Of a DNA stretch of 64,000 bases, positions 6,710-63,748 are shown piece after piece (positions within the stretch are counted from its first letter, which is position 1; every line of letters starts with the position of its first letter). The notes beneath the pieces are model-generated. The model was not told the origin of the DNA. It saw only the letters and a program-made list of their open reading frames with translations, and made no database searches. The DNA is from a plasmid: the NCBI RefSeq assembly GCF_053078305.1, contig NZ_CP166875.1. One strand, written 5' to 3'. The position numbers were made by a program, and so were the translations under genes.

Positions 6710-7558
6710 TCAGATTTTCAGCCGTGCCTGTTCCTGCAGCAGTTCCAGATGATATGTAGCAATAGCGTTTACCACCCCTGCCGTCATCCGTGCGTCGGCG
6801 ATCGCTGAGTGTGCCTGCCCTTCCCAGGTCAGTCCGGCCTGGCTGGCAGCACAGGCCAGTGAAATCGTGCCATAGCGGTTGGTGGCCCCATAATATCCTG
6901 CAGCCAGCTCCATCGCACAATATACCGTCAGTTCTTCCAGCCAGTCAGCCGGATCGCTATGTGCGGCAGCAGTCTGTTTCAGAATGCGGATATCGAACCG
7001 GGCATTAAAGATAATTACTGGTCGGTCCCCGATTGCATGCCGCAGTTGCCGCGCCACATCTGTCCATGATGGTGCGCCGCAGAGTGCCTGCTCACTGATA
7101 CCATGCACGGCGGCGGCCTGCGCCCCGATGGCGACCGTGGGCTTCAGCCTGGTTTCAAACACCACCTGACCGGCCGCATCGGTCAGGCCGATTTCCAGGG
7201 CTTCCGAGGTATTATCCAGTCCTGTCGTTTCAGTATCCAGAAAGAGTGGTGCCAGACTCAGCCAGTCATATGCCTGCCGTGCCATCCGGCCACTGGTGCT
7301 GTTTAGTCGGGATAAAACGGAAAGCCGCTGGCCAGCCAGCTGTTGTTTACTCGTCAGAGGGCGTTTCTCACGCATCGGAACACAATCTGCAATTCGGTAT
7401 ACAGCGAACCTGCCACCATAAGTATTTTTATACCACTTAACCGGCTCAGCACCGGGGGCTGGCTTCATTCTGAATTCATCGCGCAGACGTCCTTTCGAGA
7501 AACACCTGTCTTCGGCAATCGCCTGCGCACGTCTGGTGACCAGCTCATCATTATTCAT
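6710..7558 (-). CDS. DEDDh 3'-5' exonuclease (DnaQ-like) with about 100-aa N-terminal extension
   Basis: 282 aa; Exo I motif FLDTETTGL, Exo II IIFNARFDIRIL, Exo III HSAIADARM; same strand and 45 bp downstream of the RelE/ParE-like toxin gene. Confidence 0.75.
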   Translation of the reverse strand: MNNDELVTRRAQAIAEDRCFSKGRLRDEFRMKPAPGAEPVKWYKNTYGGRFAVYRIADCVPMREKRPLTSKQQLAGQRLSVLSRLNSTSGRMARQAYDWLSLAPLFLDTETTGLDNTSEALEIGLTDAAGQVVFETRLKPTVAIGAQAAAVHGISEQALCGAPSWTDVARQLRHAIGDRPVIIFNARFDIRILKQTAAAHSDPADWLEELTVYCAMELAAGYYGATNRYGTISLACAASQAGLTWEGQAHSAIADARMTAGVVNAIATYHLELLQEQARLKI

Positions 7559-7603: not shown

Positions 7604-7885
7604 CTATGGCCACTTCTGTGCAGTATGCAATACTCGCAGGATATACACTTTTCCCCACTGGCTGTCGACCTCATAAACCAGAACAAAATGCGGGTGAATA
7701 ACCAGTTCCCGGGTACCTTCCACACGACCGTTGCGGCCTTTATACGGCTGCCCGGCCAGGCTGCTGGCTGAATAACCAATCCGTTCGTCCAGTTCAATGG
7801 CAGCCATCAGGTTCTGCTCCGCAATGTACTCACGAATGCGCTTCCTGTCCTGGCTGGCCAGCATGGTCCAGAATATCTCCATCAT
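7604..7885 (-). CDS. RelE/ParE-family toxin
   Basis: 93 aa; C-terminal ...HFVLVYEVDSQWGKVYILRVLHTAQ typical of the RelE/ParE fold; start overlaps the upstream antitoxin stop by 4 nt. Confidence 0.75.
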   Translation of the reverse strand: MMEIFWTMLASQDRKRIREYIAEQNLMAAIELDERIGYSASSLAGQPYKGRNGRVEGTRELVIHPHFVLVYEVDSQWGKVYILRVLHTAQKWP

Positions 7886-8151
7886 TTACCGGCAACCTTC
7901 CTGCTCATTTCATCCCGCCATGCTGCAGCAGAGGATTCGACCATGTCATGGGGAAGCACATCGCCGTGCTCGAGTTGCTGACGTCCTGCCGCAACCTGGT
8001 CACGGAACCAGGTATTATGCTGCCGTTCAACGGTCTGGCGCATAAAATCCCGGATTAACTGGGAGCCATTACGGTCCATGCTTTTTGCAGCGGCCATAAA
8101 AGCATCCTTCAGTTCAGCGTCGATTCTTAAACTCATATTAACCTGTGCCAT
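7882..8151 (-). CDS. RelB/ParD-family antitoxin (ribbon-helix-helix)
   Basis: 89 aa; N-terminal RHH signature MSLRIDAELKDAFMAAAKSMDRNGSQLIRDFM; first gene of the operon. Confidence 0.7.
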   Translation of the reverse strand: MAQVNMSLRIDAELKDAFMAAAKSMDRNGSQLIRDFMRQTVERQHNTWFRDQVAAGRQQLEHGDVLPHDMVESSAAAWRDEMSRKVAGK

Positions 8152-8874
8152 TTATCACCTCGTCATTACTACGTATATACACAGTATATAACGATTCAGA
8201 TATCGTCACCAGGATATGCCGCGCCAGCGGCATGGAAGGCGGCGCTCTGTTGTTTCATATGATACCGGAGTAAAACCGCCGAAGCCCGGCGTAAGCCGGT
8301 ACTGATTGATAGATTTCACCTTACCCACCCCCATCCCTGCCAGACCATACCCACTTTCAGCCATGAGAGAGCTTCTGTGCGCGGTCGGAGTGGTCCCGAC
8401 GAGGGTTTACCCGAAGTCGGGGCGTATCTCCGCGTTAGCGGGCCGTCAGGGCCGCTTACGAGCGTGTATTCAACACTTCCAGCGAGAAGACTGACAGCGA
8501 TGATGCTATTTAGTTACAACATTCATAATTAAAAGCGATGTTGTTCCCGCCCTTCGGGCGGGGGCGGCCTCGCTTTTCAGTTATGAGAGGTGAGCACGGT
8601 GCTGCGTTTGTGTGGTGTTTTTATTCCTGATGTCTTTTTGCTGTGGTTTCAGAACGGTGAGGTTCGGGGCCCGCGCGTTAGCGTGGGAGGTGCATATTTG
8701 CTTGTCCACAGGACAGGCACTGAATAGGTTTTCTTTTCAAATGGAAGTAATTAAGTAGTTTAAAGGAAATACAGTACTGGGGTTTAAAAGAAACATTGCA
8801 CCCTGTAACGCCTGCGGCTGGCGCTTTATAGCATTAACGGTTGTAATCTTACGGAGAAGTCCCTTGCAGTTAAA

Positions 8875-8883
8875 TGTGGATAA
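8875..8883. promoter_or_regulatory. DnaA box in putative oriR downstream of repA
   Basis: TGTGGATAA (complement of TTATCCACA) about 180 bp downstream of the repA stop, where RepA1-type replicons place their origin. Confidence 0.35.
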
Positions 8884-9058
8884 ACAGAATTCCCCGTCTG
8901 TGAGACGTGTTTTGCGTGAAAAACAGGGGGAGCAAGGCGAGCCGGAAGGCAGATGATGAGGCTGTTTTTTGTGTGCTGTGCTGCTTTTTTGTGCGTCGCC
9001 GGGCTTCAGACGTGCGGAAGCCTCCGGCGCAGGCCGGATTATTCAGATGAGGTCAAAC

Positions 9059-9931
9059 TCAGGGTGAGGCTGTGGCCAGCCGTGTGTAGTTGTTGTTCCG
9101 CGACATTATCATGCGTTCCTTCACGCGACGGTCGATTTCGCGCTTCACGGCCTCCAGGCTTCCCCGGAAACGCCCTTCCGCGATTTCACGTGTCAGCTGC
9201 CGTTTCACCAGGGTGACAATGTCCTGACGGGTCCTGCCTGCATCGCGGCGCGCACGGGCACGTTTCATGCCGTGGGACTTAAGCTCTGCCTGATAACTGC
9301 GGAAACGCTCGCGCACAAAACGCCAGGCTCTCGCTATCAGTTCATCCATACCCAGCGCATCCAGCCCCTGCTTTTTGCGCAGCTTGTTTTCCCATTCCAC
9401 GCGGCTGCGGCGTGCGGAAGCCACTGCCTCTTCTGAGATATCAAGTGAGTCAAACAGTGCCGGCGTGAACGTGATGTCGGTCGGGATGTTACAGCCAATT
9501 GTCGGGTCGTATTCCGTCTGGTAGGTTATCAGCCCCAGCTCAGACAGGAACTTCAGGGCACGGGTGGCACGGGTGATGGAGAGTTTCCCGGCCTCAGACT
9601 CCGTCGCCAGTCCGCACTCAATGGCCAGCGTGGTGATGGAGCACTGGACGCGGTTGGCCAGCGGATCGTAGTGGAAACACAGCCCCTGCAGCAGCGCATC
9701 AATCGCCCGGCGGCGCAGCACCGGCGGCATACGCCGGCGCAGGCCGCGCGAACGGGCATACGCCACATGCGCGGCAAAATCAAAACGGGAGGTGAAGCCC
9801 ACCGCCTTTTCCATCAGTTTTTCGCAGAACTTCAGCGTCCCGGCATCTTCACGGGGTGTGAAGACCGGATTCGGGTTCTTTACCTGACGGTATGTGCTTT
9901 CAGTAAATGAGGTCTGGTTCAGGGCCGCCAC
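9059..9931 (-). CDS. repA: RepA1-type replication initiator (IncFII / I-complex family)
   Basis: 290 aa; ...[99 protein letters not shown]... closely matches IncFII RepA1 as recalled; start codon uncertain (GTG in ORF track). Confidence 0.85.
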
Positions 9932-10130
9932 AAGCTGTCGCTTATGGCGGAAACAGAATGCCGTGCGTTAATGCACTGCGAAGGGTTGAATCTCTGGTAC
10001 GGTTTCATATATACTTATCCCGTATTCTGTGAGGCCCCCATTATCTTTCTCTGATTCCGCCAAGTTTCGTGGAAAGATGATGGGGGTTTTCCTTTATGGC
10101 CTTCTGAAACTTTTTTCAGCCTTCCGGCCC
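9932..10130 (-). promoter_or_regulatory. repA leader / antisense-RNA control region (inferred)
   Basis: Region upstream of repA on the coding strand; contains 5'-TTGGCG-3' on the repA mRNA strand (window 10057-10062), the loop hexanucleotide used in antisense-RNA control of I-complex/IncFII replicons. No copB/repA2 ORF upstream. Confidence 0.35.
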
Positions 10131-10633
10131 CGGCAAACTGCCGTCGTTTCTGCCATACATCCTGAATGCCTTATGGCGCATTCTGCCGTTTTCTGGCTTT
10201 CCGGACCGCGAGGATCCCAAAAGCCACTGAATAACGATCCGCAATATACCCCTTTTCCACCGCTTTGAAAAGCCGACACGATTTCTCTGATTTACCAGGC
10301 CTCTCATTAACCACCTAAAAAACGTCGTTTTTTTGAACTATGTCAAAAAAATAGACAATTCCACAAACGATCTTTTATGCTGTGTTTTTCATCATTTTTA
10401 GTAGAAGAGATCGCCTAAAATTTTTAAACGATCTAATCCTCCAGACACCGCACACAAATCAGCATAATATGCTGCTTTATCAAATATAACGATCTATTTA
10501 ACTGCTTATCTTCACTCTTGCCACAGATACATCCTTATGTAATATATTTGCCAGCCATTAATCCTGTTTGCAGGAGTTGTCGGTTTTCGCCCGCCTCGAA
10601 ACCGTCCACAAGGCTTACAAGAGTGCGTAAATC

Positions 10634-11275
10634 ATGTGCCTGTCAGAACTGCAGGCCGGGCTGAACGAGGGTCAGCCGCTGTTTCCGACACATGCTTTAT
10701 GTATTCGCCGTTCACAACAACATCGAAGCCCCTCTGCGGGGATCGATTTTCGCGGAGCGTTCCGGATTTTGAATATCAGTGAATTACATCAACGCAACTG
10801 GTATCTGGCTCAGTACATCCCTGCCGGCAAAAACCGCGAACATCTCTTTTCCTGGCTTTCCGAACAACACGTCCTTCCCTGGACACCCCTGATACTGAAA
10901 AAGGTCCGCCGCACGGATAAAGTCTGTGGTTACCGTCGACATATACACGCCGTGTTTCCCGGTTACTTTTTCCTGAAAGCAGACCCCGAACGCCACAGCT
11001 TCACTCACCTTCGCCGTCACAGTGCCTTTCTGGACTTCGTGAAAATGGCCGGTGAAATCAAAACCGTCAGGGAGGATATCGTTCAGTCTTTGATGAAAGT
11101 GTACCCGGATCCTGCGCTCAATCCGGCAGCCAGGGAGGAGCTGGATGCTGCCTCCACCCTCTGGCTGACAAAAGCGCGTTACCAGTACCTCCTCCGGCTT
11201 GATGCACAGCCTCTGCCGGAGTCGAGGATCGCCCTGCTCCTGCACCTGGTATCTGATGACGGAGCGTTGACATGA
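10634..11275 (+). CDS. NusG/RfaH-like (NGN domain) protein, possible transcription antiterminator
   Basis: Segment NWYLAQY...LPWTPLILKKVRRTDKVCGYRRHIHAVFPGYFFLKADPE...FLDFVKMAG parallels the RfaH/NusG NGN domain (FPNYLFVEFDPE); no clear KOW domain; start uncertain. Confidence 0.45.
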   Translation: MCLSELQAGLNEGQPLFPTHALCIRRSQQHRSPSAGIDFRGAFRILNISELHQRNWYLAQYIPAGKNREHLFSWLSEQHVLPWTPLILKKVRRTDKVCGYRRHIHAVFPGYFFLKADPERHSFTHLRRHSAFLDFVKMAGEIKTVREDIVQSLMKVYPDPALNPAAREELDAASTLWLTKARYQYLLRLDAQPLPESRIALLLHLVSDDGALT

Positions 11276-12347: not shown

Positions 12348-12968
12348 ATGACACTGACGTTACTTACCGCGTATAACGCACCCTATCTGGCAGCCCTGAC
12401 TTTTGTTCTGCTTACTGGTATCGCTGAACTTATCGCCCTGCTCTGCGGACACTCCCTCTCTTCAGCTATGGATACACCTGATTTACCGGAGGGGCTGACA
12501 GGAGAGGCGCTGGACTGGCTGAACATCGGACGGATCCCCCTGCTGATCGTCCTCTGTATACTGGCAGGTTTTTTTGGTATATCCGGCATTCTCCTGCAGG
12601 GTCTTATTATTCATCTGCTGCAGGCTCCTGCCCCGAACATTCTCCTTGCACCACTTTGCCTGCTGCTGACATGTCCTCTCGTACACCGCACCGGCAGACT
12701 GATTGCCCCCTGGTTACCCCGTGATGAAACAACGGCGCTCACCGAGGAGGCATTCATCGGGTGTATGGCCACCATCACCGGTTATCACGCAGTGGCGGGT
12801 TCCCCCTGTGAAGGTCGCTTCACAGACCGCTTTGGGCAGGTTCATTACCTGTTGCTGGAGCCGGAGGCCGGGAAAGAATTCAGACGAGGAGACAAAGTGA
12901 TTATTGTCTGCCGTCTTTCCGGTTCCCGCTGGCTGGGCGAACTGAATCCCTGGCCGGATGTTCTTTAA
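12348..12968 (+). CDS. yqiJ: NfeD-like membrane protein (YqiJ-like)
   Basis: 206 aa; N-terminal TM helices plus C-terminal soluble domain (...GQVHYLLLEPEAGKEFRRGDKVIIVCRLSGSRWLGEL); upstream of an SPFH/flotillin gene as in the yqiJ-yqiK pair. Confidence 0.55.
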   Translation: MTLTLLTAYNAPYLAALTFVLLTGIAELIALLCGHSLSSAMDTPDLPEGLTGEALDWLNIGRIPLLIVLCILAGFFGISGILLQGLIIHLLQAPAPNILLAPLCLLLTCPLVHRTGRLIAPWLPRDETTALTEEAFIGCMATITGYHAVAGSPCEGRFTDRFGQVHYLLLEPEAGKEFRRGDKVIIVCRLSGSRWLGELNPWPDVL

Positions 12969-12971
12969 TCC

Positions 12972-12979
12972 CGACATAT
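12972..12979. repeat. 8-bp target-site duplication (left) of IS66 element
   Basis: CGACATAT immediately left of the IS terminus; identical copy at 15513-15520. Confidence 0.7.
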
Positions 12980-13009
12980 GTAAGCGTCAACGGAGCACCG
13001 TATTGACGC

Positions 13010-14623
13010 TTATTTATTGGTGAGTACTACGTTCCATGGCAGGAGTTCATCAACTCGGTTGGAAGGCCATTCTGGCAGTACGCTCAGGATATGGCGCAGA
13101 TACGCTTCCGGATCGATACCGTTCAGACGGCAGGTGCCGATCAGCCCGTACAACAGTGCTCCACGCTCGCCGCCGTGATCGCTGCCAAAGAACATAAAGT
13201 TTTTCTTTCCGAGACAGACTGCACGAAGCGCTCTTTCCGCAGCATTATTATCCGCCTCCGCCAGACCGTCATCACTGTAATAACAGAGGGCATCCCACTG
13301 ATTCAGTACATAGCTGAACGCTTCGCCCAGTCTGGATTTTTTCGACAGCGTACCATTCTTCTCCACCATCCATTCATGCAGTGACGTCAGTAACACTTTG
13401 CTTCGCTGCTGCCTGACGGCAAGACGCTCTGACTCCGGTAATCCCCGTATTTCATCCTCGATGGCGTACAGTTCACTGATTCGCTTCAGGGCTTCTTCTG
13501 CCGTCGCACTTTTGCTGCTGATGTATACATCGTGGATTTTTCGCCGGGCATGGGCCCAGCACGCAACTTCTGTCAGTGCACCACCTTCACGTTCTGCACT
13601 GAACAGCCGATCGTAACCGCTGAACGCATCCGCCTGCAGGATACCCCGGAAGGGACGAAGGTGTTGTACCGGATGTTTTCCCTGCCTGTCTGGTGAGTAG
13701 GCGAACCAGACCGCCGGTGGCTCTGATGAGCCCGCATTCCGGTCATCCCGGACATACGTCCAGATGCGTCCTGTTTTTGCCTTTTTTCTGCCCGCTGCCA
13801 GCACTTTTACTGGTGTGTCGTCAGTGTGAACCTTGCGGGTGTTCATCACGTAACGGTACAGGGTATCATTCAGCAGAGTCATTAACTGACAACATGCGTC
13901 AACCCAGTTGGAGAGTAATGCCCGGCTCAGTTCGATGCCCTGGCGGGCAAAGATTTCACTCTGACGATACAGTGGCAGGTGTTCGCAGTATTTTCCCGTT
14001 AACACGCGGGCAAGTAATCCGGAGCCCGCGATGCCGCGCTCTATCGGGCGGGACGGCGCTGGCGCTTCAACTATACAGTCACATTTTGTACAGGCTTTTT
14101 TTACCCGAACAGTGCGGATCACTTTCAGGGCGCTACTCACCAGTTCCAGCTGCTCAGCACTGACTTCCCCCAGATAATCCAGCTCACTGCCACACTCCGG
14201 GCAACAACTTTCTTCAGGCTCCAGACGGTGTATTTCACGGGGAAGATGTGCCGGTAACGGACGACGATGACGTGACTGTCGCAACTGGCGGGGAACCTGC
14301 GGGTCATCCTCACGCCCACTGTAACGATCGCTTTCCTGTTCGCGTTGTTTCAGTTGGGCCTCAGCCTGTTCAACCTCACGCTGCAGTTTTTCAGAACGGG
14401 TACCGAACAACATCCGGCGCAGTTTTTCTATCTGGGCCCTCAGATGTTCTATTTCCCGCTCCTCCTCTTCGATCTTTTCCTCGGCACGTGCCAGTGCAGA
14501 GCGCAGGAAGGCCTCCGTCTCTTCAACCAGACTCAGTTGCTGATCTTTCTGACGGAGGGCTTCAGCCTGCTCAGAGAGCAGCCTTTCCAGCTCAGTGATA
14601 CGAATGAGGTATTTCCGACTCAT
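13010..14623 (-). CDS. tnpC: IS66-family transposase (TnpC)
   Basis: 537 aa with N-terminal coiled-coil / leucine zipper, Cys-rich zinc-finger (CCPECGSELDY...CTKCDC) and a long catalytic region typical of IS66 transposases. Confidence 0.9.
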   Translation of the reverse strand: MSRKYLIRITELERLLSEQAEALRQKDQQLSLVEETEAFLRSALARAEEKIEEEEREIEHLRAQIEKLRRMLFGTRSEKLQREVEQAEAQLKQREQESDRYSGREDDPQVPRQLRQSRHRRPLPAHLPREIHRLEPEESCCPECGSELDYLGEVSAEQLELVSSALKVIRTVRVKKACTKCDCIVEAPAPSRPIERGIAGSGLLARVLTGKYCEHLPLYRQSEIFARQGIELSRALLSNWVDACCQLMTLLNDTLYRYVMNTRKVHTDDTPVKVLAAGRKKAKTGRIWTYVRDDRNAGSSEPPAVWFAYSPDRQGKHPVQHLRPFRGILQADAFSGYDRLFSAEREGGALTEVACWAHARRKIHDVYISSKSATAEEALKRISELYAIEDEIRGLPESERLAVRQQRSKVLLTSLHEWMVEKNGTLSKKSRLGEAFSYVLNQWDALCYYSDDGLAEADNNAAERALRAVCLGKKNFMFFGSDHGGERGALLYGLIGTCRLNGIDPEAYLRHILSVLPEWPSNRVDELLPWNVVLTNK

Positions 14624-14653
14624 GACCGTTTTTATAATCCGGCCATGACATTT

Positions 14654-15004
14654 TTACAACATTGTCAGTGCATTAAGGCGGGATGTTTTGGGCTGACGCC
14701 AGTCCAGTTTATCGAGGAGCATTGCCAGCTGCGAGCGGGTAATGGATACCTTACCGTCACGCACCGCAGGCCAGATAAACTGGCCTTCCTCCAGACGTTT
14801 GGTGAACAGGCACAGACCATCAGCATCAGCCCACAGAATTTTAATCGTGTCACCCCGTCGGCCGCGAAAGATAAACAGGTGACCGGAGAAGGGGTTCTCA
14901 TCCAGCACATGTTGTACCTGTTCTCCCAGACCGTTGAAGGATTTACGCATATCAGTAACGCCGGCAACCAGCCAGATTCGAGTGCCTGATGGGAGCGAGA
15001 TCAT
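14654..15004 (-). CDS. tnpB: IS66 Orf2 (TnpB) accessory protein
   Basis: 116 aa, MISLPSGTRIWLVAGVTDMRKSFNGLGEQV..., the conserved IS66 Orf2. Confidence 0.85.
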   Translation of the reverse strand: MISLPSGTRIWLVAGVTDMRKSFNGLGEQVQHVLDENPFSGHLFIFRGRRGDTIKILWADADGLCLFTKRLEEGQFIWPAVRDGKVSITRSQLAMLLDKLDWRQPKTSRLNALTML

Positions 15005-15426
15005 CGTCCCCTCCCGGTCAGTTCACGGATCAACACCGTGAGCAGCTCTGGTGAAGGATTTTCCAGCGTCATGTTACCGTGGCGGAACTCAACTTTACAG
15101 GAACTGGCACTGACTGTGCTTTGTGAAGGAGTGGATAAAAGCGGAGTAAGAGCCGCCACAGGCTCTTTCTGCTCATCAGGCGTTATCTCAACAGGTAATA
15201 ATTCAACGCCAGCGCCAGAAGAGGTTGTTACCGGAAGACGCCGCGATATACGCCCTTCGTTCTGCCAGAGCCTGAGCCATTTGAACAGGAGGTTATCATT
15301 GATATCGTGTTCCCGGGCAATACGGGCAACAGAGGCTCCTGGTTGTGAAGCCAGTTTAACCATTTGAAGTTTAAACTCATTTGAAAATGATCTGCGGGGT
15401 TCTGAGGATAATATTTTCTGTTCCAT
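15001..15426 (-). CDS. tnpA: IS66 Orf1 (TnpA) HTH protein
   Basis: 141 aa with HTH (FSNEFKLQMVKLASQPGASVARIAREHDINDNLLFKWLR); stop overlaps the Orf2 start. Confidence 0.8.
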   Translation of the reverse strand: MEQKILSSEPRRSFSNEFKLQMVKLASQPGASVARIAREHDINDNLLFKWLRLWQNEGRISRRLPVTTSSGAGVELLPVEITPDEQKEPVAALTPLLSTPSQSTVSASSCKVEFRHGNMTLENPSPELLTVLIRELTGRGR

Positions 15427-15512
15427 AACAGGTGTCCACTAGTTGAAAAGGTGGGCACCTACGTTACCAATACTGGCTTAATGGCTACATACGGCGGTCA
15501 GTTTACGCTTAC

Positions 15513-15520
15513 CGACATAT
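15513..15520. repeat. 8-bp target-site duplication (right) of IS66 element
   Basis: CGACATAT, identical to 12972-12979. Confidence 0.7.
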
Positions 15521-15535
15521 ACAGAGGTTCTCACT

Positions 15536-17230
15536 ATGTTTAATCTTCCGGGATGGTTGTTTACCGTTATTTCGCTGGTCCTCACCCTGTTCGTTATCGG
15601 GCTGATATTTGCCCGCCTGTACCGTCGGGCATCGGCAGAGCAGGCCTTTGTCCGCACAGGTCTGGGAGGCCAAAAAGTGGTAATGAGTGGCGGTGCAATT
15701 GTTATGCCCATTTTTCACGAAACAATTCCCGTCAACATGAACACCCTGAAGCTGGAAGTCAGTCGTGCAGCGGCTGAAAGTCTCATTACCCGCGACCGCA
15801 TGCGTGTTGATGTTGCCGTTGCCTTTTTTCTTCGGGTAAAACCATCAGCCGAAGGAATATCCACTGCAGCCCAGACGCTGGGACAACGCACGCTCACACC
15901 TGAAGATCTGCGTAGTCTGGTCGAGGATAAATTTGTTGATGCCCTGCGGGCCACGGCGGCCAGAATGAGCATGCAGGATTTACAGGATGCCCGCGAGAAC
16001 TTTGTTCAGGGTGTGCAGAACACCGTTGCGGAAGACTTATCCAAAAACGGTCTGGAGCTTGAAAGTGTGTCGCTGACAAGTTTCAACCAGACTGCACGGG
16101 AACATTTTAATCCTGACAATGCCTTTGATGCTGAAGGCCTGACCCTTCTGACCCAGGAAACAGAACGTCGTCGCCGCGAACGTAACGAAGTTGAGCAGGA
16201 TGTTGAAGTGGCCATCAGGGAAAAAAACCGGGATGCACTCTCCCGACGTCTGGAGATTGAACAGCAGGAAGCCTTCATGACTCTGGAGCAACAACAACGG
16301 GTAAAAACCCGTACGGCAGAGCAGAGTGCCAGTATTGCTGCTATTGAAGCTGAACGACGTCGTGAAGCAGAATCCGCGAGAATTCTGGCTGAACGTAAGA
16401 TAGAGGAAGCCGAAATCGAACGACAGCAGATAGTGCGTACCCGCCAGGTCGAAGCCGAACGGGAAGTGGCCATACGGGAAATTGAGCAACAGCAGGCAAC
16501 CGAAATCGCCAGCCAGGCCAGAGCCATTGCCGTGGCTGCAAAATCGGAAGAGCAGTCACAGGCAGAAGCCCGGGCAAGTAAAGCACTGGCTGAAGCCGTA
16601 CAGGCCCAGCAGGATGTGGAAACCACCCGCCAGACTGCGGAGGCCGACCGTACCAAACAGGTTGCCCTGATTGCTGCTGCTCAGGAAGCTGAAACGAAAG
16701 CGGTTGAACTGACGGTTCGCGCACAGGCTGAAAAAGAAGCAGCCGAACTCCAGGCAGCAGCAATTATTGAACTGGCGGAGGCCACCCGTCAGAAAGGTCT
16801 GGCAGAAGCAGAAGCACAGCGCGCACTGAACGATGCCATTAACGTGCTTTCGGATGAGCAGACCAGCCTCCGCTTCCGTCTTGCCCTGCTGGATGCATTA
16901 CCTGCCGTCATAGAGAAGTCCACAGAACCAATGAAATCCATTGACGGCATTAAAATCATTCAGGTGGATGGCCTGAATGGCGGTGTTACCCGTGGTAAAA
17001 CAGCAACAACCGACATAAGTGGCGGAAATCTCGCTGAACAGGCGGTAACCGCCGCTCTGGCTTACCGTACACAGGCTCCGCTCATCGACTCCCTGCTGAA
17101 GGAGGTGGGGTTATCCGGTGAAGGACTTACAGCCCTGACACGTCCACTGGTCATGCCAGCCCCGGAAAAGGTCCCGGATGTCAGCGAACCGGTAACCGCT
17201 CCGGATAACTCAGAACCACAACAGGTTTAA
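15536..17230 (+). CDS. yqiK: flotillin-like SPFH/band-7 protein (YqiK-like)
   Basis: 564 aa; N-terminal TM anchor, SPFH domain, then long Ala/Glu/Gln-rich coiled-coil (AEAERRREAESARILAERKIEEAEIERQQIV...); AGAGG Shine-Dalgarno before ATG 15536. Confidence 0.75.
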   Translation: MFNLPGWLFTVISLVLTLFVIGLIFARLYRRASAEQAFVRTGLGGQKVVMSGGAIVMPIFHETIPVNMNTLKLEVSRAAAESLITRDRMRVDVAVAFFLRVKPSAEGISTAAQTLGQRTLTPEDLRSLVEDKFVDALRATAARMSMQDLQDARENFVQGVQNTVAEDLSKNGLELESVSLTSFNQTAREHFNPDNAFDAEGLTLLTQETERRRRERNEVEQDVEVAIREKNRDALSRRLEIEQQEAFMTLEQQQRVKTRTAEQSASIAAIEAERRREAESARILAERKIEEAEIERQQIVRTRQVEAEREVAIREIEQQQATEIASQARAIAVAAKSEEQSQAEARASKALAEAVQAQQDVETTRQTAEADRTKQVALIAAAQEAETKAVELTVRAQAEKEAAELQAAAIIELAEATRQKGLAEAEAQRALNDAINVLSDEQTSLRFRLALLDALPAVIEKSTEPMKSIDGIKIIQVDGLNGGVTRGKTATTDISGGNLAEQAVTAALAYRTQAPLIDSLLKEVGLSGEGLTALTRPLVMPAPEKVPDVSEPVTAPDNSEPQQV

Positions 17231-17235
17231 TCCCC

Positions 17236-17553
17236 GTGCCGGAATTTTTCCGGCATCTTTTTCACAAAGAATGCCCTCACGGGATATTCTGGTTTAAAAG
17301 AGGATTGAAAATGTCCGCAGAAAAATTCAGAGTTGTCATATACACCAATACATGTGAAAAGAAAGTCAGTTATATTCCTGCAACAGAAGATATAAACATC
17401 GCTATAATGCCATTTCAGACGGCAGACAATGGCTTAATTATTGTGTGTCAGAACTCCCGTATAATACGACGCAAAGAGCGTATACCCGGAAGCAGCTGTG
17501 AATGGAAAGATGTGACATTAGCACTAAAATCCAGAAACCGCGTTCAGTTATAG
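17236..17553 (+). CDS. hypothetical protein
   Basis: 105-aa ORF between yqiK and the pil operon; start may be the internal Met (MSAEKF...). Confidence 0.25.
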   Translation: MPEFFRHLFHKECPHGIFWFKRGLKMSAEKFRVVIYTNTCEKKVSYIPATEDINIAIMPFQTADNGLIIVCQNSRIIRRKERIPGSSCEWKDVTLALKSRNRVQL

Positions 17554-17648
17554 CCTGACAGCCTGCTTTTTATCCCTCAGAAAAGGGGGATAAAAATTAA
17601 ATATTTCACAACCGAGATATTTTTCAGGAATGCAGATTATTTTATGTT

Positions 17649-18005
17649 ATGACCAACAGAGAAACAGGCATGAGAACAATCACAACGCGTGAACAATTAT
17701 TAATTAATGGGAGAGTCCACGAAAGAATCGCCACACATATAGTTACAGGAGCTCATGGGTATGAAACGCTTTGCACAAATGGCTATAACGTCAGATACAA
17801 CAAGGCGCAGCAACTGGTTGAAAGCTGCGAAAAAATAGCTGAAGGCAAACTACCTGTTACCTGTCCTGTCTGTTTCGCCATATGGCAGGATGTACACAGG
17901 TTCACCCACGTTGACTTTGACACACAATCGGGGAAAAGTGATTTTATTGATACCTGCCATTCGGAGATCATAACCGGAAATGTTTCAATAACAGGCAAGA
18001 AATAA
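17649..18005 (+). CDS. hypothetical Cys-rich protein
   Basis: 118-aa ORF (CPVCF...C..E) directly upstream of pilL. Confidence 0.25.
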   Translation: MTNRETGMRTITTREQLLINGRVHERIATHIVTGAHGYETLCTNGYNVRYNKAQQLVESCEKIAEGKLPVTCPVCFAIWQDVHRFTHVDFDTQSGKSDFIDTCHSEIITGNVSITGKK

Positions 18006-32635: not shown

Positions 32636-33838
32636 ATGATGATGAATATGCACATTACCCGAACTCTCATCGCATCTGCTGTTTTATTTTCCTTTAATTC
32701 AACAGCCGCAACTTCATATTTTGAAGCCCGCAATGATGCAATGGGGGGAACCGGGGTAGCCTCCTCTCACTACGGTGTGGCACCTCTGGCAAACCCGGCC
32801 CTGCTGACAAAAGCCGGTCCGGAAGATGACTTCAGTCTTCTGCTTCCGTCCGTTGGTGGGCAATTGTCCGATCCGGGTAATATCAGTGACAACGCAGACA
32901 AAATCAGTGATGACTGGAAAGCCTTTGATCGTGCCATCGACAGTCAGAGCAACGTGTCGCAGACTGCTGCACGTCTGAAGACGCGACTTCAGGACTTCCG
33001 TCACACACATGCTGACGCACAGGTGGGAACATCTGCTGTGGCGACTCTTCCCGGTGACACCCTCGCTGCCGCTCTGATGCTGAAAAGCTACGGTACGATC
33101 AGTGTCGACGGTAAAGTCAGTGATGCCGACCTGAACTATCTGGAAAGCATTGCAAACAGTAACGGTCAGGATGTGGATAAAGACAGACTGACCTCTCAGG
33201 CTTTTGCCCGTGCCGCACTGGTCACCGATGTGGGTATTGCTCTGGCTACTGAACTGGAAACGGCCGGACAAAAGTGGTCTCTGGGCTTCACACCAAAATT
33301 CCAGCGTGTTGACCTGTTTAACTACAACGTGCTGGTTAAAAATTACGACAGCAGCGCTTTCAAAGGCGACCGTTACCACAACACCAGAAACGGCATTAAC
33401 GCTGATATCGGGGCCAGCATGGACCTGGATGACAACTGGACACTGGGTCTGGTCGCACAGAACCTGCTCCCCCGCAGTATTGAGACAAAGGAAGTGAACG
33501 GTGTCACAGAAACTTTCAGGATCCGCCCGCAGGTGACTGCCGGTGTCTCCTGGCACAACGACATGTTCACTACAGCACTGGATGTTGACCTGACCCCGGC
33601 CAGTGGCTTCACATCAGACAGTAAACGTCAGTTTGCTGCCATTGGTGCTGAATTTAATGCCTGGAAATGGGCACAGTTACGTGCAGGCTACCGCCAGAAT
33701 CTGGCCAGCAATGATGGCAGTGCGTTCACCGCCGGGCTGGGTATCTCACCATTTGATGTCGTCCATATTGATGTGGCGGGTATAGCAGGCACAGACAACA
33801 ACTACGGTGCCGTTGCACAACTGCAGTTCACATTCTGA
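32636..33838 (+). CDS. outer-membrane beta-barrel-like transfer protein
   Basis: Start at ATG 32636 (AGGAAA Shine-Dalgarno); signal peptide; C-terminus ...AVAQLQFTF ends in Phe with alternating hydrophobic pattern typical of outer-membrane barrels. Confidence 0.45.
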   Translation: MMMNMHITRTLIASAVLFSFNSTAATSYFEARNDAMGGTGVASSHYGVAPLANPALLTKAGPEDDFSLLLPSVGGQLSDPGNISDNADKISDDWKAFDRAIDSQSNVSQTAARLKTRLQDFRHTHADAQVGTSAVATLPGDTLAAALMLKSYGTISVDGKVSDADLNYLESIANSNGQDVDKDRLTSQAFARAALVTDVGIALATELETAGQKWSLGFTPKFQRVDLFNYNVLVKNYDSSAFKGDRYHNTRNGINADIGASMDLDDNWTLGLVAQNLLPRSIETKEVNGVTETFRIRPQVTAGVSWHNDMFTTALDVDLTPASGFTSDSKRQFAAIGAEFNAWKWAQLRAGYRQNLASNDGSAFTAGLGISPFDVVHIDVAGIAGTDNNYGAVAQLQFTF

Positions 33839-58848: not shown

Positions 58849-59467
58849 TGACGCACAGGACGGAAAAAATAATAGCTGCCGGACAGCAGCAACCAGCAGT
58901 CGTCCGGTAAAAAAGACAAACAAGGCGCATTGAGGTCAGCCTTCGCAACAATCCGGCGGCAGATTCTCTACCGCCGTGTTGCCCGTTAACGTTTAACTTC
59001 GTAGGCTAACGTTGCCACAAGCACCGTATTTCCCTGCTCGATACGAAATCCGCAAAGCGAATCCCTCACCATCCAGACAAAACACAGTATCGTCACACAG
59101 ACGACGATTAACATCATTAAAAACGTTCGTTGTGGCATCGCAGCCCCTCCATTGCCTTTCGGCCGTCATCGGGCTACTATAATGTTGTTGAGGCATTACA
59201 GTGGGCCCTGGGTTGATTGATAAAAAAATCGCCTGGGGCTTTCTGCTACATGCCGTCCACAAAACGCTTTCGGCATACAGCCTCAAGCGCCCGCCGCTAT
59301 TCTAATCGTTTTCCAGTCCGCCACAATCCTTTTCATGCCACCACGTATTTTGTGTCAGGGACAGAAATAAAGCCGGAAAGTGACTACGTGTGCACACATC
59401 TGTTTTCCGGGCTGCAGGCATCGTGTTATTTTCTGAAATGCAAAATAATAAAAAACAAGGACACATC

Positions 59468-62195: not shown

Positions 62196-62372
62196 ATGAA
62201 CCTGGTTGATGCATTTGTCACTAAAGTGATATCCGGACCGTATGAAGAATACGGAAAATGGTGGGTGGATGTAGAATATATTTCCTGGGGAGTTCCGGGT
62301 AAAAGCCGGCTCATGTTTGACTCACGGGAACAGGCACAGGAAGTGCAGGAAGGTTTTCGATTTTTAACCTGA
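62196..62372 (+). CDS. small hydrophilic protein (58 aa), part of repeated module
   Basis: ATG 62196 with AAAGGTG Shine-Dalgarno; MNLVDAFVTKVISGPYEEYGKWWVDVEYISWGVPGKSRLMFDSREQAQEVQEGFRFLT; followed by hairpin GGGCAGAAGGCGGTGACCCTCTGCCC; a truncated paralog lies at 62958-63062. Confidence 0.3.
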   Translation: MNLVDAFVTKVISGPYEEYGKWWVDVEYISWGVPGKSRLMFDSREQAQEVQEGFRFLT

Positions 62373-62434
62373 GCATATTTTGTTAAAGGGCAGAAGGCGG
62401 TGACCCTCTGCCCTTAAGTACGTTTCCGGGATTA

Positions 62435-62530
62435 TCAGTCAACCAGTTCCCGGATCAGTTCCAGGAGAGCTATCACTGCGTTAGCCACAGCAACAACCGC
62501 CCTGAGAACGATGATTAACAGGTTAATCAT
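62435..62530 (-). CDS. 31-aa hydrophobic peptide, type I toxin-like (TisB/ZorO-like), copy 1
   Basis: Reverse-strand ATG (62528-62530) preceded by GGAG Shine-Dalgarno; MINLLIIVLRAVVAVANAVIALLELIRELVD; near-identical copy at 63119-63214. Confidence 0.45.
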   Translation of the reverse strand: MINLLIIVLRAVVAVANAVIALLELIRELVD

Positions 62531-62755
62531 CCGCTTCTCCATCAATGGAGAAAGAACACCGTGGTTTGCCCTTACATTGCCTGTCGCCACGTTTTCTATA
62601 GTGTCAGTTATAGACAGTTCTTCTCCGGCCAGAGCACCAAAACCAGCACCACCTGATGTTTTGGCCAGGACTTGCAACCTGTTCATCCCGGTGAACGATA
62701 TGCCGGAAAGAACGTGCCTCAAAGCTGACACACCGAGTATATACTTATACTGTGC

Positions 62756-62784: not shown

Positions 62785-62957
62785 TTCATAGTCAGTTATA
62801 GGCAGTTATCTTCCGGTCAGGGCTACCAACTTCGATCCGGAATCGCAAAAAAACCGGCCTCACCAGTCGGTTTTTTTGCGTCTGTACCTCCTCCCCGGAC
62901 AGCAGTTCTCTCACTCCCGTTGAATATTTCCTGTTGAATTTTACGAAAATACGGCAA

Positions 62958-63062
62958 ATGGGAGATATCGAATATATTTCCTTGGGTGTAGTCGGTAAAA
63001 ACCAGCTCATGTTTGACTCACAGAAACAGGCTCTGGAAGTACAGAAAGTAATCTGTCCGTAG
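62958..63062 (+). CDS. truncated paralog of the 58-aa small protein (34 aa)
   Basis: MGDIEYISLGVVGKNQLMFDSQKQALEVQKVICP, similar to residues 25-55 of the 62196 ORF; weak RBS, possibly degenerate. Confidence 0.2.
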   Translation: MGDIEYISLGVVGKNQLMFDSQKQALEVQKVICP

Positions 63063-63118
63063 ATTATTAAAGGGCAGAGGGCGGTGACCCTCTGCCCTTA
63101 AGTACGTTTCCGGGATTA

Positions 63119-63214
63119 TCAGTCAACCAGTTCCCGGATCAGTTCCAGGAGAGCTATCACTGCGTTAGCCACAGCAACAACCGCCCTGAGAACGATGATT
63201 AACAGGTTAATCAT
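63119..63214 (-). CDS. 31-aa hydrophobic peptide, type I toxin-like, copy 2
   Basis: Same peptide as 62435-62530 (MINLLIIVLRAVVAVANAVIALLELIRELVD); flanking about 150 bp also duplicated. Confidence 0.45.
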   Translation of the reverse strand: MINLLIIVLRAVVAVANAVIALLELIRELVD

Positions 63215-63748
63215 CCGTTTCTCCATCAATGGAGGAAATCACTGTTGTTTACTCTTACATTGCCTGTCACAACAGCTCTTTCATTGTTAGCTGAAAAGAG
63301 ACTTCCTCCGGCCAGAGCACCAGACGCAGCACCACCTGTTTGTCCGGCCAGGTCTTTGAATAGCACAGATCCATAGTCCCGATGGATTGATGCGAAGGTA
63401 AGTCTCCAGACAAGGCTAACTTGCTGATTATACTTGTTTCAGGCGATATCGCTACTCCCGGAACAATAGACTGTAACGAACAGATTGCGATCAGGTGAAT
63501 ATAACGATATTCTGGTAACGTTAGTTGAAAAGAGACTTCCCCCGGGCCAGAGCCACCCACTCTCCCTGGGATCGCAAAAAAGCCGGCCTCACCAGTCGGC
63601 TTTTTTGTGCCTGTCTCTCACCACCTTCTGCTGTTCCTGTGAAAATGCCCTGCTGAATTCAGCCCTGCCCGGTCATTACCGGCGATTGTTCGCATTAATT
63701 CCACTCAGCCTCATCCCGAAATTTATCTATTTATCGATGGAGGAATCC

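Follow-up and report, generated by a model that had tools for sequence, protein, structure and literature searches.

I-complex replicons have been described as being composed of repA, repB and RNAI (PMC10286972). In the IncIalpha plasmids ColIb-P9 and R64 (inc-repY-repZ) and the IncB plasmid pMU720 (RNAI-repB-repA), an antisense RNAI and a UUGGCG loop occur together with a 29-aa leader peptide coupled to rep, a stem-loop III and a pseudoknot. The IncFII plasmids R1 and R100 follow the order copB-copA-tap-repA1-CIS-oriR. Closest to the locus described here are the IncZ and IncK2 replicons of pIE545, pO26-CRL-125, pTMSA1088 and pL2-87; the replicon of pO26-CRL-125 was reported to be identical to that of the IncZ prototype pIE545, GenBank M93064 (PMC3817090). 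For the IncK2/Z subgroup we used the criteria of Zhang et al. 2019 (PMC6361801), with pO26-CRL-125 as subgroup reference. The IncK2 reference in our comparisons was pTMSA1088, in place of pDV45 (KR905384).

Here we analyzed 64,000 nucleotides of plasmid DNA, referred to as the window. Positions 8694-10271 very probably constitute the basic replicon of an I-complex plasmid of the IncK2/Z class, including the mechanism known from the model systems. An IncFII-like RepA and origin are joined to an I-complex control region with antisense RNA, leader peptide and pseudoknot, a natural mosaic that has long been known. Far from being peculiar to the present plasmid, this layout is how replicons of the IncZ/IncK2 clade are normally built. 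All control elements listed above for ColIb-P9/R64 and pMU720 have known or predicted counterparts in the window, whose initiator and origin are unrelated to theirs (RepZ/RepA, 343 aa). With R1/R100, the window shares a CIS spacer, DnaA box, AT-rich oriR and downstream region that are collinear at about 85% nucleotide identity. Unlike these IncFII plasmids, it has neither CopB nor Tap, and the I-complex leader replaces CopA/CopT.

An IncFII-type initiator and origin

The initiator gene and the adjoining origin comprise the following features.

9059-9931, minus strand: repA, IncFII RepA1-type replication initiator, 290 aa, GUG start (ORF, TIGR03474, DNA identity)
8884-9058, minus strand: CIS-like spacer of 175 bp from the repA stop to the origin (collinear with the IncFII repA-ori spacer)
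8875-8883, minus strand: DnaA box TTATCCACA at the repA-proximal edge of the origin (sequence, conservation in IncFII-type origins)
8694-8874, minus strand: oriR-like origin body with two 12-nt repeats and an AT-rich stretch (IncFII alignment, GC 0.30-0.42)

The repA gene is a real minus-strand ORF at the position assigned to it by an earlier, sequence-only reading of this DNA, with GTG as start codon. In an NCBIfam scan its product scored 565.9 bits against TIGR03474 incFII_RepA (cutoff 446.9), and it also matched Pfam IncFII_repA. Alignment to IncFII RepA1 gave 87.3% amino acid identity over 284 aa, versus only 24% over 100 aa for R64 RepZ; pCT RepA showed no significant match to the window RepA. 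At the DNA level, repA is 100% identical to that of pL2-87 and 98.74% identical to that of the IncZ reference pO26-CRL-125 (11 differences in 873 nt), where IncK2/Z membership asks for >95% rep nucleotide identity to the latter plasmid. The ribosome-binding site of repA is weak and hard to recognize. In the PGAP annotation, the gene is called 'IncFII family RepA'.

The DnaA box, proposed earlier together with an AT-rich region downstream of repA, is borne out by the sequence and by the alignment, in which it stands in register with IncFII origins. Positions 8875-8883 read TGTGGATAA; on the repA strand this gives TTATCCACA, a perfect box 176 bp downstream of repA. Taken by itself the 9-mer is not significant: the window contains it twice where 0.62 occurrences are expected, and 12 of 100 shuffled sequences do equally well. 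No base of the box differs among the window, pO26-CRL-125, pTMSA1088 and the IncFII plasmid; in pL2-87 it carries one mismatch. Beyond it, the AT-rich stretch at 8700-8800 has a GC content of 30-42% and contains two 12-nt repeats at 8758-8769 and 8782-8793, which read TTTCCTTTAAAC and TTTCTTTTAAAC on the repA strand and conform to TTTC(C/T)TTTAAAC. These putative iterons are located 266-301 bp after the repA stop at 9059. IncK2/Z plasmids were described to carry two iteron copies 176-301 bp downstream of rep, and three rather than two were reported for R64 and pCT (PMC6361801); in number and location, the predicted repeats of the window agree with the IncK2/Z description. The role of a CIS-like spacer is known from the literature on R1 and IncB.

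An I-complex leader precedes repA

Upstream of repA, the minus-strand transcript would contain a structured leader with these elements.

10035-10086, minus strand: stem-loop I of the rep mRNA leader, the predicted RNAI target (PK-repZ, fold, covariation)
10055-10062, minus strand: putative proximal pseudoknot bases 5'-UGGCGGAA-3' in the loop of stem-loop I (8-nt complementarity to 9945-9952)
9945-9952, minus strand: putative distal pseudoknot bases 5'-UUCCGCCA-3' in the 5' arm of stem-loop III (complementarity)
9925-9950, minus strand: stem-loop III, an 11-bp hairpin with a GACA loop (MFE and centroid folds)
9919-10008, minus strand: repY/repB-like leader peptide ORF, 29 aa (ORF, length and start comparison)

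The leader matches the Rfam family RF01087 (PK-repZ) at 9944-10094 with 166.7 bits, where the gathering score is 44, and the match spans the model from end to end (1-150). The UUGGCG motif recognized by the sequence-only reading is present and belongs to an antisense/pseudoknot-type leader, though one base away from the 10057-10062 given there: its complement CGCCAA occupies 10058-10063 on the plus strand. The hexamer alone is meaningless, as it occurs 21 times against 43 expected. What makes it significant is its placement: 5'-UUGGCG-3' forms part of the apical loop of a PK-repZ-matching stem-loop with compensatory changes. In the 15-pair helix of stem-loop I, 95% of cells pair, compared to about 55% when the pairing is slid, and four pairs are changed on both sides, compared to 0-1 with slid pairing. 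Both folds and covariation thus place the hexamer in a structured element. MFE and centroid folding both recover stem-loops I and III, and the leader has a z-score of -3.76; the MFE fold adds two small pairs within the loop of stem-loop I that are missing from the centroid fold.

Stem-loop III is predicted to hide both the repA GUG and the distal bases of the pseudoknot. In pTMSA1088, an A-to-G change in the loop is matched by a U-to-C change in the distal site, a compensatory exchange for the pseudoknot pairing. The leader peptide has the same length and start as those of R64, pCT and p3521, and the equivalent ORF of p2492-1 is annotated 'positive regulator for repZ translation'. Its stop overlaps the repA start, with the UGA 10 nt past the repA GUG at 9931, an overlap that by analogy would couple translation of the two frames.

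Module junctions and distribution

Comparison with named plasmids divides the locus into segments of different affinity. From 10700 to 9904, nucleotide identity is 91.2% to pCT (IncK1) and 90.6% to p3521 (IncB/O), while 9892-8400 is 84.6% identical to the IncFII replicon. IncFII homology ends at 9892, inside repA and about 13 codons in. Homology to pCT, p3521 and R64 is absent from 9904 to 8693 and resumes at 8693, which marks the module boundary. As judged from this homology map, the exchange is a clean module swap.

The IncZ/IncK2 replicons of pIE545, pO26-CRL-125, pTMSA1088 and pL2-87 are identical to the window in module layout and junctions. Like the window, this clade combines a repA of 98.5-100% nucleotide identity with the PK-repZ leader, the 29-aa leader ORF, the DnaA box and two ori repeats, and lacks copB; the backbone is of the B/O/K/Z type and carries traBC, pil, shufflon and Dot/Icm-like tra genes. 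The CIS/ori of the window is of the pO26 type, unlike the pL2-87 type. MOB-suite assigns pH2332-107, pL2-87, pDW54_2, pMbl536, pTMSA1088 and pO26-CRL-125 to IncK2/Z, and on pL2-87, pH2332-107 and pDW54_2 this is the sole replicon typed. The window is collinear at 99.1% with the pil/shufflon/tra region of pL2-87. An earlier description of the locus as a RepA1-type replicon lacking copB, likely I-complex-like or a hybrid, therefore captured its nature: TIGR03474 and Pfam IncFII_repA are matched, no CopB homologue exists in the 64 kb, an IncFII-like initiator, CIS and ori are combined with a PK-repZ control region, and the closest relatives are typed IncK2/Z, MOBP and MPF_I.

The whole 2.3 kb has no exact match in PLSDB or among complete E. 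coli genomes, the best match being 98.5%. We rejected novelty on this ground, as piecewise comparison reveals allele mosaicism: differences to the pO26 type cluster in RNAI and those to pL2-87 in CIS/ori. The arrangement is already known, because it is also found in 158 PLSDB plasmid records and 136 of 5426 complete E. coli genomes, and explaining the locus takes no new biology.

The RNAI allele

Convergent to the leader lies the candidate gene for the antisense RNA.

10022-10092, plus strand: predicted RNAI (inc) antisense RNA gene, about 70 nt, approximate ends (promoter-like site, hairpin)

It is preceded by a promoter-like TTGAAT-18-TATACT at 9986-10015 on the plus strand and contains a hairpin of -33 kcal/mol (z -5.59) followed by a U-run. 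The RNAI/stem-loop I allele is 9-13 edits away from the IncI1, B/O, K1, K2 and Z references, with 11 edits to pO26-CRL-125 (IncZ) and 10 to pTMSA1088 (IncK2), and it is identical in pL2-87, pDW54_2 and pMbl536. In the same stem-loop comparison, the compatible IncK1 and IncK2 differ by only five edits. By its stem-loop sequence, RNAI would thus belong to neither the phenotypic IncZ nor the phenotypic IncK2 incompatibility group. A literature search returned no paper naming the present allele, which may represent an unnamed incompatibility specificity within the IncK2/Z clade.

The region upstream of the leader

Two further features lie upstream.

10243-10271, minus strand: predicted promoter of the repY-repA mRNA, TTTTCA-17-TATATT (consensus scan only)
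10366-10495, plus strand: array of three AACGATCT copies with a GATC at 10409 (8-mer count, GATC conservation)

The predicted rep promoter region is conserved in pCT, p3521 and pO26-CRL-125, and 10243-10271 would serve as the rep promoter. That no CopB-like ORF precedes repA, as had been noted from the sequence, was confirmed: in tblastn searches of the whole 64 kb, IncFII CopB (best E-value 2.8) and Tap (best E-value 0.86) found no homologue, and the small ORFs upstream of the leader (10029-10314) matched no NCBIfam family.

The sequence-only reading had put a GATC-rich stretch (10300-10560) in the place of CopB. The enrichment stands locally, but the stretch, which is no stand-in for CopB, forms the shared intergenic region of the replicon and a divergent traB-like (NusG/RfaH-like) gene. 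Four GATC sites at 10369, 10409, 10430 and 10491 are enriched for the local composition (P about 0.004). Across the window the cluster is unexceptional, with random placement yielding an equally tight one 54% of the time; since this test is within chance, we retain the GATC richness only as a local, composition-adjusted observation. The sites are conserved in six B/O/K/Z plasmids, and R64 has eight GATC in 280 bp at the equivalent position, in sequence not alignable with the window. AACGATCT occurs at 10366, 10427 and 10488, spaced by exactly 61 bp, the sole three copies in the 64 kb. AACGATCC adjoins the -10 of the predicted rep promoter.

The array probably lies outside the basic replicon. 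It may be an AT-rich, Dam-methylation- or SeqA-sensitive cis element, which may adjust the activity of the divergent promoters of rep and/or traBC once the plasmid has replicated or entered a cell by conjugation. A possible relative is the 'Hft' region upstream of traABC in IncI1 (PMC5801416), the coordinates of which are not mappable onto the cluster; our literature search found no paper discussing the GATC array. Two separate proposals, the array as a Dam/SeqA-sensitive element and the RNAI allele as an unnamed specificity, are tentative, and we consider them rather unlikely. If the first is true, the array would represent a transcriptional layer in CopB-less replicons.

Proposed mechanism of replication control

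The elements themselves, with their homologies, RNA folds and covariation, and the lack of CopB come from the present sequence analysis. For the working of these elements we infer transcript ends, coupling, pseudoknot activation and cis-action from the model systems ColIb-P9, IncB and R1. Minus-strand transcription from the promoter near 10243-10271 would produce an mRNA with the leader, the 29-aa repY/repB-like ORF and then repA. In this mRNA, stem-loop III would lock the repA GUG and the 8-nt distal sequence, and repA would therefore not be translatable on its own. A ribosome translating the leader peptide would terminate 10 nt past the GUG and melt stem-loop III. The freed distal bases UUCCGCCA would then base-pair with UGGCGGAA of the stem-loop I loop, and the resulting pseudoknot would activate repA initiation.

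The antisense RNAI of about 70 nt would be made constitutively from the plus-strand promoter at 9986-10015 and kiss the UUGGCG loop of stem-loop I, blocking both leader-peptide translation and pseudoknot formation. RepA synthesis would therefore drop with rising copy number, and incompatibility would be set by RNAI as well. With control entirely post-transcriptional, a CopB repressor would be unneeded. RepA, as an IncFII RepA1-type initiator, would act preferentially in cis across the 175-bp CIS spacer on the R1-like oriR, where it would open the DNA (DnaA box 8875-8883, two repeats, AT-rich stretch) for theta replication.

Alternative explanations

Given that RepA, CIS and ori are IncFII-like, the locus might be a standard R1/R100-type IncFII replicon whose copB/copA/tap control is merely displaced or diverged, and a weak CopA-like Rfam match on the plus strand would fit this explanation. 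At 34.6 bits, however, that match is sub-threshold, far below the gathering score of 60, and on the same bases PK-repZ reaches its 166.7 bits. IncFII homology stops within repA at 9892, the 64 kb hold no CopB or Tap homologue, and the leader peptide is RepY-like with 29 aa, as opposed to the 24-aa Tap. Rfam scores, homology map and CopB/Tap searches refute a standard IncFII replicon, which we consider practically impossible with an I-complex control region and relatives typed IncK2/Z. The opposite assignment, a classical IncI1, IncB/O or IncK1 replicon with a RepZ-type initiator, draws on the PK-repZ match, a control region about 91% identical to pCT and p3521, and the I-type transfer system. 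It is contradicted by a RepA of 290 instead of 343 aa, by the marginal resemblance to R64 RepZ (24% over 100 aa) and lack of a significant pCT RepA match, and by the missing nucleotide homology to pCT, p3521 and R64 between 9904 and 8693. Homology map and protein comparison refute this assignment too, leaving it next to no probability.

Sharp module boundaries at 9892-9904 and about 8693, no exact full-length match, and visible local mosaicism in RNAI (against the pO26 type) and CIS/ori (against pL2-87) are what a recent one-off recombinant of IncFII and I-complex plasmids, unique to the present plasmid, would leave behind. Yet the IncZ and IncK2 reference plasmids have the same module junctions as the window; junctions and architecture recur in pO26-CRL-125, with its replicon reported identical to pIE545 (PMC3817090), and the arrangement is also present in pTMSA1088, pMbl536, pL2-87, the 158 PLSDB plasmids and the 136 E. 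coli genomes. A one-off event is hence very improbable, and only the allele shuffling within the clade is recent. Equally small is the chance of a decayed, non-functional replicon on a plasmid kept by another replicon outside the window, an idea that our 64-kb view of the plasmid leaves some room for. Every element of the replicon is intact, however. Its repA shares 100% identity with the gene of pL2-87, which MOB-suite classes as conjugative and which measures 87 kb, and IncK2/Z is the sole replicon typed on pL2-87 and pDW54_2. In the related pMS7163B, moreover, TraDIS found the replicon to be essential (PMC10286972). An intact basic replicon of the IncK2/Z class remains the reading that we prefer.

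Implications

The practical value of this assignment lies in annotation and typing. The PGAP label 'IncFII family RepA' is open to misreading as an F-type replicon, whereas control region and backbone mark an I-complex plasmid (IncK2/Z, B/O/K/Z), with RNAI expected to set copy number and incompatibility. Modular evolution of replicons is clearly illustrated by this locus, in which a repA-CIS-oriR cassette was swapped exactly between an I-complex control region and shared downstream sequence. Shuffling of RNAI alleles and ori segments continues within the clade, which explains the inconsistent labels IncB/O, IncK2 or IncZ given to such plasmids.

Replicon organization and module boundaries

By nucleotide and protein homology, the replicon combines an IncFII-like initiator and origin with an I-complex control region. 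Its features are listed below.

8758-8769 and 8782-8793: two 12-nt repeats, downstream of repA
8875-8883: DnaA box, reading TGTGGATAA (repA strand, consensus TTATCCACA)
downstream of repA: CIS, the 175-bp spacer between repA stop and oriR, collinear with IncFII
downstream of repA: AT-rich stretch, GC 0.30-0.42
9059-9931, minus: repA, 290 aa, GTG start, IncFII-type RepA
9919-10008: leader peptide ORF, 29 aa, ending 10 nt beyond the repA GUG
9925-9950: stem-loop III, a perfect 11-bp hairpin enclosing the repA GUG and UUCCGCCA (leader fold)
9986-10015, plus: promoter-like site TTGAAT-18-TATACT, upstream of the RNAI hairpin
10035-10086: stem-loop I, UUGGCG in its apical region (leader fold)
10058-10063: CGCCAA, complement of UUGGCG, within the stem-loop I span
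10634-11275: traB homologue, NusG/RfaH-like (Pfam/NCBIfam), divergent from rep

The RepA1-type ORF proposed in the sequence-only reading is present, and its product matches Pfam IncFII_repA (E = 6.6e-24, profile search) and NCBIfam TIGR03474 (565.9 bits, cutoff 446.9). IncFII RepA1 is 87.3% identical to it over 284 aa; RepZ of R64 (IncI1) shows only 24% identity over 100 aa, and pCT (IncK1) RepA gave no significant match. The segment 3′ of repA is collinear with IncFII through CIS, DnaA box, repeats and AT-rich stretch. The repeats are placed 266-301 bp after repA, which fits the two iterons described for IncK2/Z plasmids 176-301 bp downstream of repZ (PMC6361801).

The DnaA box was likewise found where it had been read, with the consensus on the repA strand. 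Its 9-mer occurs twice in the window (0.62 expected) and the UUGGCG hexamer 21 times (43 expected); neither is significant alone, and the significance of these short motifs comes from their context. The second perfect consensus, at 33172-33180 (minus) within the tra/pil region, is probably a chance match. Adjoining the origin are a 3′-5′ exonuclease gene with an RNase_T domain (6710-7558, minus) and a YacA/YacB type II toxin-antitoxin pair with a ParE-family toxin (7604-8151, minus).

Nucleotide homology reveals a clean module swap. Over 10700-9904, identity is 91.2% to pCT and 90.6% to p3521 (IncB/O), and 9892-8400 is 84.6% identical to an IncFII replicon; pCT, p3521 and R64 become homologous again only from 8693 onward. 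From these breakpoints, the cassette therefore begins at approximately codon 10-13 of repA and takes in CIS and oriR, flanked by the I-complex control region on one side and by a downstream segment common to both plasmid families on the other. The suggestion that the replicon is I-complex-like or a hybrid is thus supported.

Leader, predicted pseudoknot and antisense RNA

The Rfam model of the ColIb-P9 repZ regulatory pseudoknot, PK-repZ (RF01087), matches 9944-10094 on the minus strand over its full length with 166.7 bits (gathering score 44). Other models remained below their gathering scores, i.e., CopA-like (34.6 bits versus 60) and PK-repBA (26.9 versus 45). The control region is accordingly assigned to the I-complex by model and nucleotide similarity.

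Folding of the leader returned two hairpins (z = -3.76), stem-loops I and III. The UUGGCG motif reported earlier is indeed in the apical region of the former, but lies one base further right than had been read. An 8-nt complementarity links UUCCGCCA with UGGCGGAA of the stem-loop I loop, and pTMSA1088 (IncK2) has G in place of A in the loop with a matching C in place of U at the distal site. Among seven I-complex representatives, 95% of cells in the 15-pair stem of stem-loop I are paired and 4 pairs are altered on both sides, versus ~55% and 0-1 pairs in a slid-pairing control. In length and start, the leader ORF agrees with its leader-peptide counterparts in R64, pCT and p3521. On the plus strand, the promoter-like site is followed by a hairpin of -33 kcal/mol with a U-run (z = -5.59), the predicted, expected RNAI of ~70 nt, an antisense RNA against stem-loop I.

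No match to IncFII CopB (best E = 2.8) or Tap (best E = 0.86) was obtained by tblastn over 64 kb, and the small ORFs at 10029-10314 matched no NCBIfam family. The lack of a CopB-like ORF, also noted from the sequence alone, is explained by the I-complex control design, of which the CopB repressor is not part.

Following the models for ColIb-P9, IncB and R1, rep mRNA would start near 10236 from a promoter-like site at 10243-10271, and stem-loop III would mask the GUG and keep repA silent. Translation of the leader peptide would open stem-loop III, allowing the distal bases to pair with the stem-loop I loop in a pseudoknot that activates repA initiation. RNAI binding to the UUGGCG loop would block both leader translation and the pseudoknot, providing copy-number control and incompatibility. 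RepA would then act, probably in cis, with DnaA on the adjacent R1-like oriR.

GATC-rich intergenic region

The GATC-rich stretch is the intergenic region common to rep and the divergent traB homologue. The 64 kb contain exactly three copies of AACGATCT, all on the plus strand (10366, 10427 and 10488) with an exact 61-bp spacing, and AACGATCC at 10233-10240 adjoins the rep promoter -10. GATC sites of the 10366-10495 region are kept in six B/O/K/Z plasmids. The equivalent position of R64 (NC_005014), not alignable with the window here, holds 8 GATC in 280 bp versus 0.72 expected (0 of 20000 shuffles reach 8). Within the divergent promoter region of rep and traBC, the array may act as a Dam- or SeqA-sensitive element. 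A possible relative is 'Hft' of IncI1, a cis region that lies upstream of traABC and modulates transfer (PMC5801416).

Relatives and allele mosaicism

I-complex replicons comprise repA, the repB leader and RNAI (PMC10286972), with repA clades I1/B/O, Igamma/K1 and K2/Z (PMC10286972; PMC6361801). The IncK2/Z reference is pO26-CRL-125, whose replicon reportedly does not differ from that of the IncZ prototype pIE545 (PMC3817090). The closest plasmids include pH2332-107, pL2-87, pDW54_2, pMbl536, pTMSA1088 and pO26-CRL-125, all typed IncK2/Z, MOBP and MPF_I. Among PLSDB records, 158 show the full arrangement, as do 136 of 5426 complete E. coli genomes; the repA-ori part alone is matched by thousands of IncFII plasmids at 80-90% identity. 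The replicon thus belongs to a well-known, already described class, and the sequence-only observation is confirmed and its interpretation supported. Praszkier et al. in 1991 reportedly found IncZ RepA and origin to resemble IncFII and the control region to resemble IncB/K.

The I-type transfer system is confirmed as well, 17864-64000 being 99.1% collinear with pL2-87 (pil, shufflon, Dot/Icm-like tra, excA, trbA). An Rfam sok antitoxin RNA at 59136-59292 (minus; 124.7 bits, gathering score 59) indicates a putative hok/sok-type post-segregational killing locus; the collinear part of pL2-87 has a Hok/Gef gene. An Rfam match to AgrB antisense RNA lies at 62792-62879 (plus; 47.7 bits, gathering score 40), and this region, with repeats at 62244-62673 and 62945-63356, matches two pL2-87 copies of the DinQ-like type I toxin gene dqlB, with ~82% identity to each other's flanks. 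Between the traC-like gene and the pilL-side genes (~12500-17864) the window is ~2.5 kb longer than pL2-87; the extra stretch includes a 537-aa ORF (13010-14623, minus), and an IS66-like IS682 transposase is annotated there in the close relative NZ_CP104118.

The stem-loop allele at 10035-10086 differs by 9-13 edits from those of R64, p3521, pCT, pTMSA1088 and pO26-CRL-125; the stem-loops of IncK1 and IncK2, phenotypically compatible, are only 5 edits apart. The plasmids pL2-87, pDW54_2, pMbl536 and p2492-1 carry the window's allele or one that differs from it by 1 nt, and ~80 PLSDB plasmids match at 95% or above over 131 nt. Plasmids with this allele are labelled inconsistently in papers (pL2-87 as IncB/O, pMbl536 as IncK2).

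No record matches the 2.3 kb replicon exactly. Nucleotide identity of repA is 100% to pL2-87, 98.74% to pO26-CRL-125 and 98.51% to pTMSA1088. Versus IncZ-type plasmids, 17 of 38 differences lie in the stem-loop I/RNAI upper stem (10042-10079); pL2-87 and pDW54_2 are identical in the RNAI region and repA, and their ~43 differences cluster in CIS/ori (8500-9050). The RNAI upper stem resembles pL2-87, pDW54_2 and pMbl536, and CIS/ori resembles pO26-CRL-125 and pH2332-107. At many of the differing CIS/ori sites pL2-87 has the IncFII base. As judged from these alignments, the replicon mosaic reflects allele shuffling within the clade, and the IncFII-like bases in the pL2-87 CIS suggest a continuing exchange with F plasmids.
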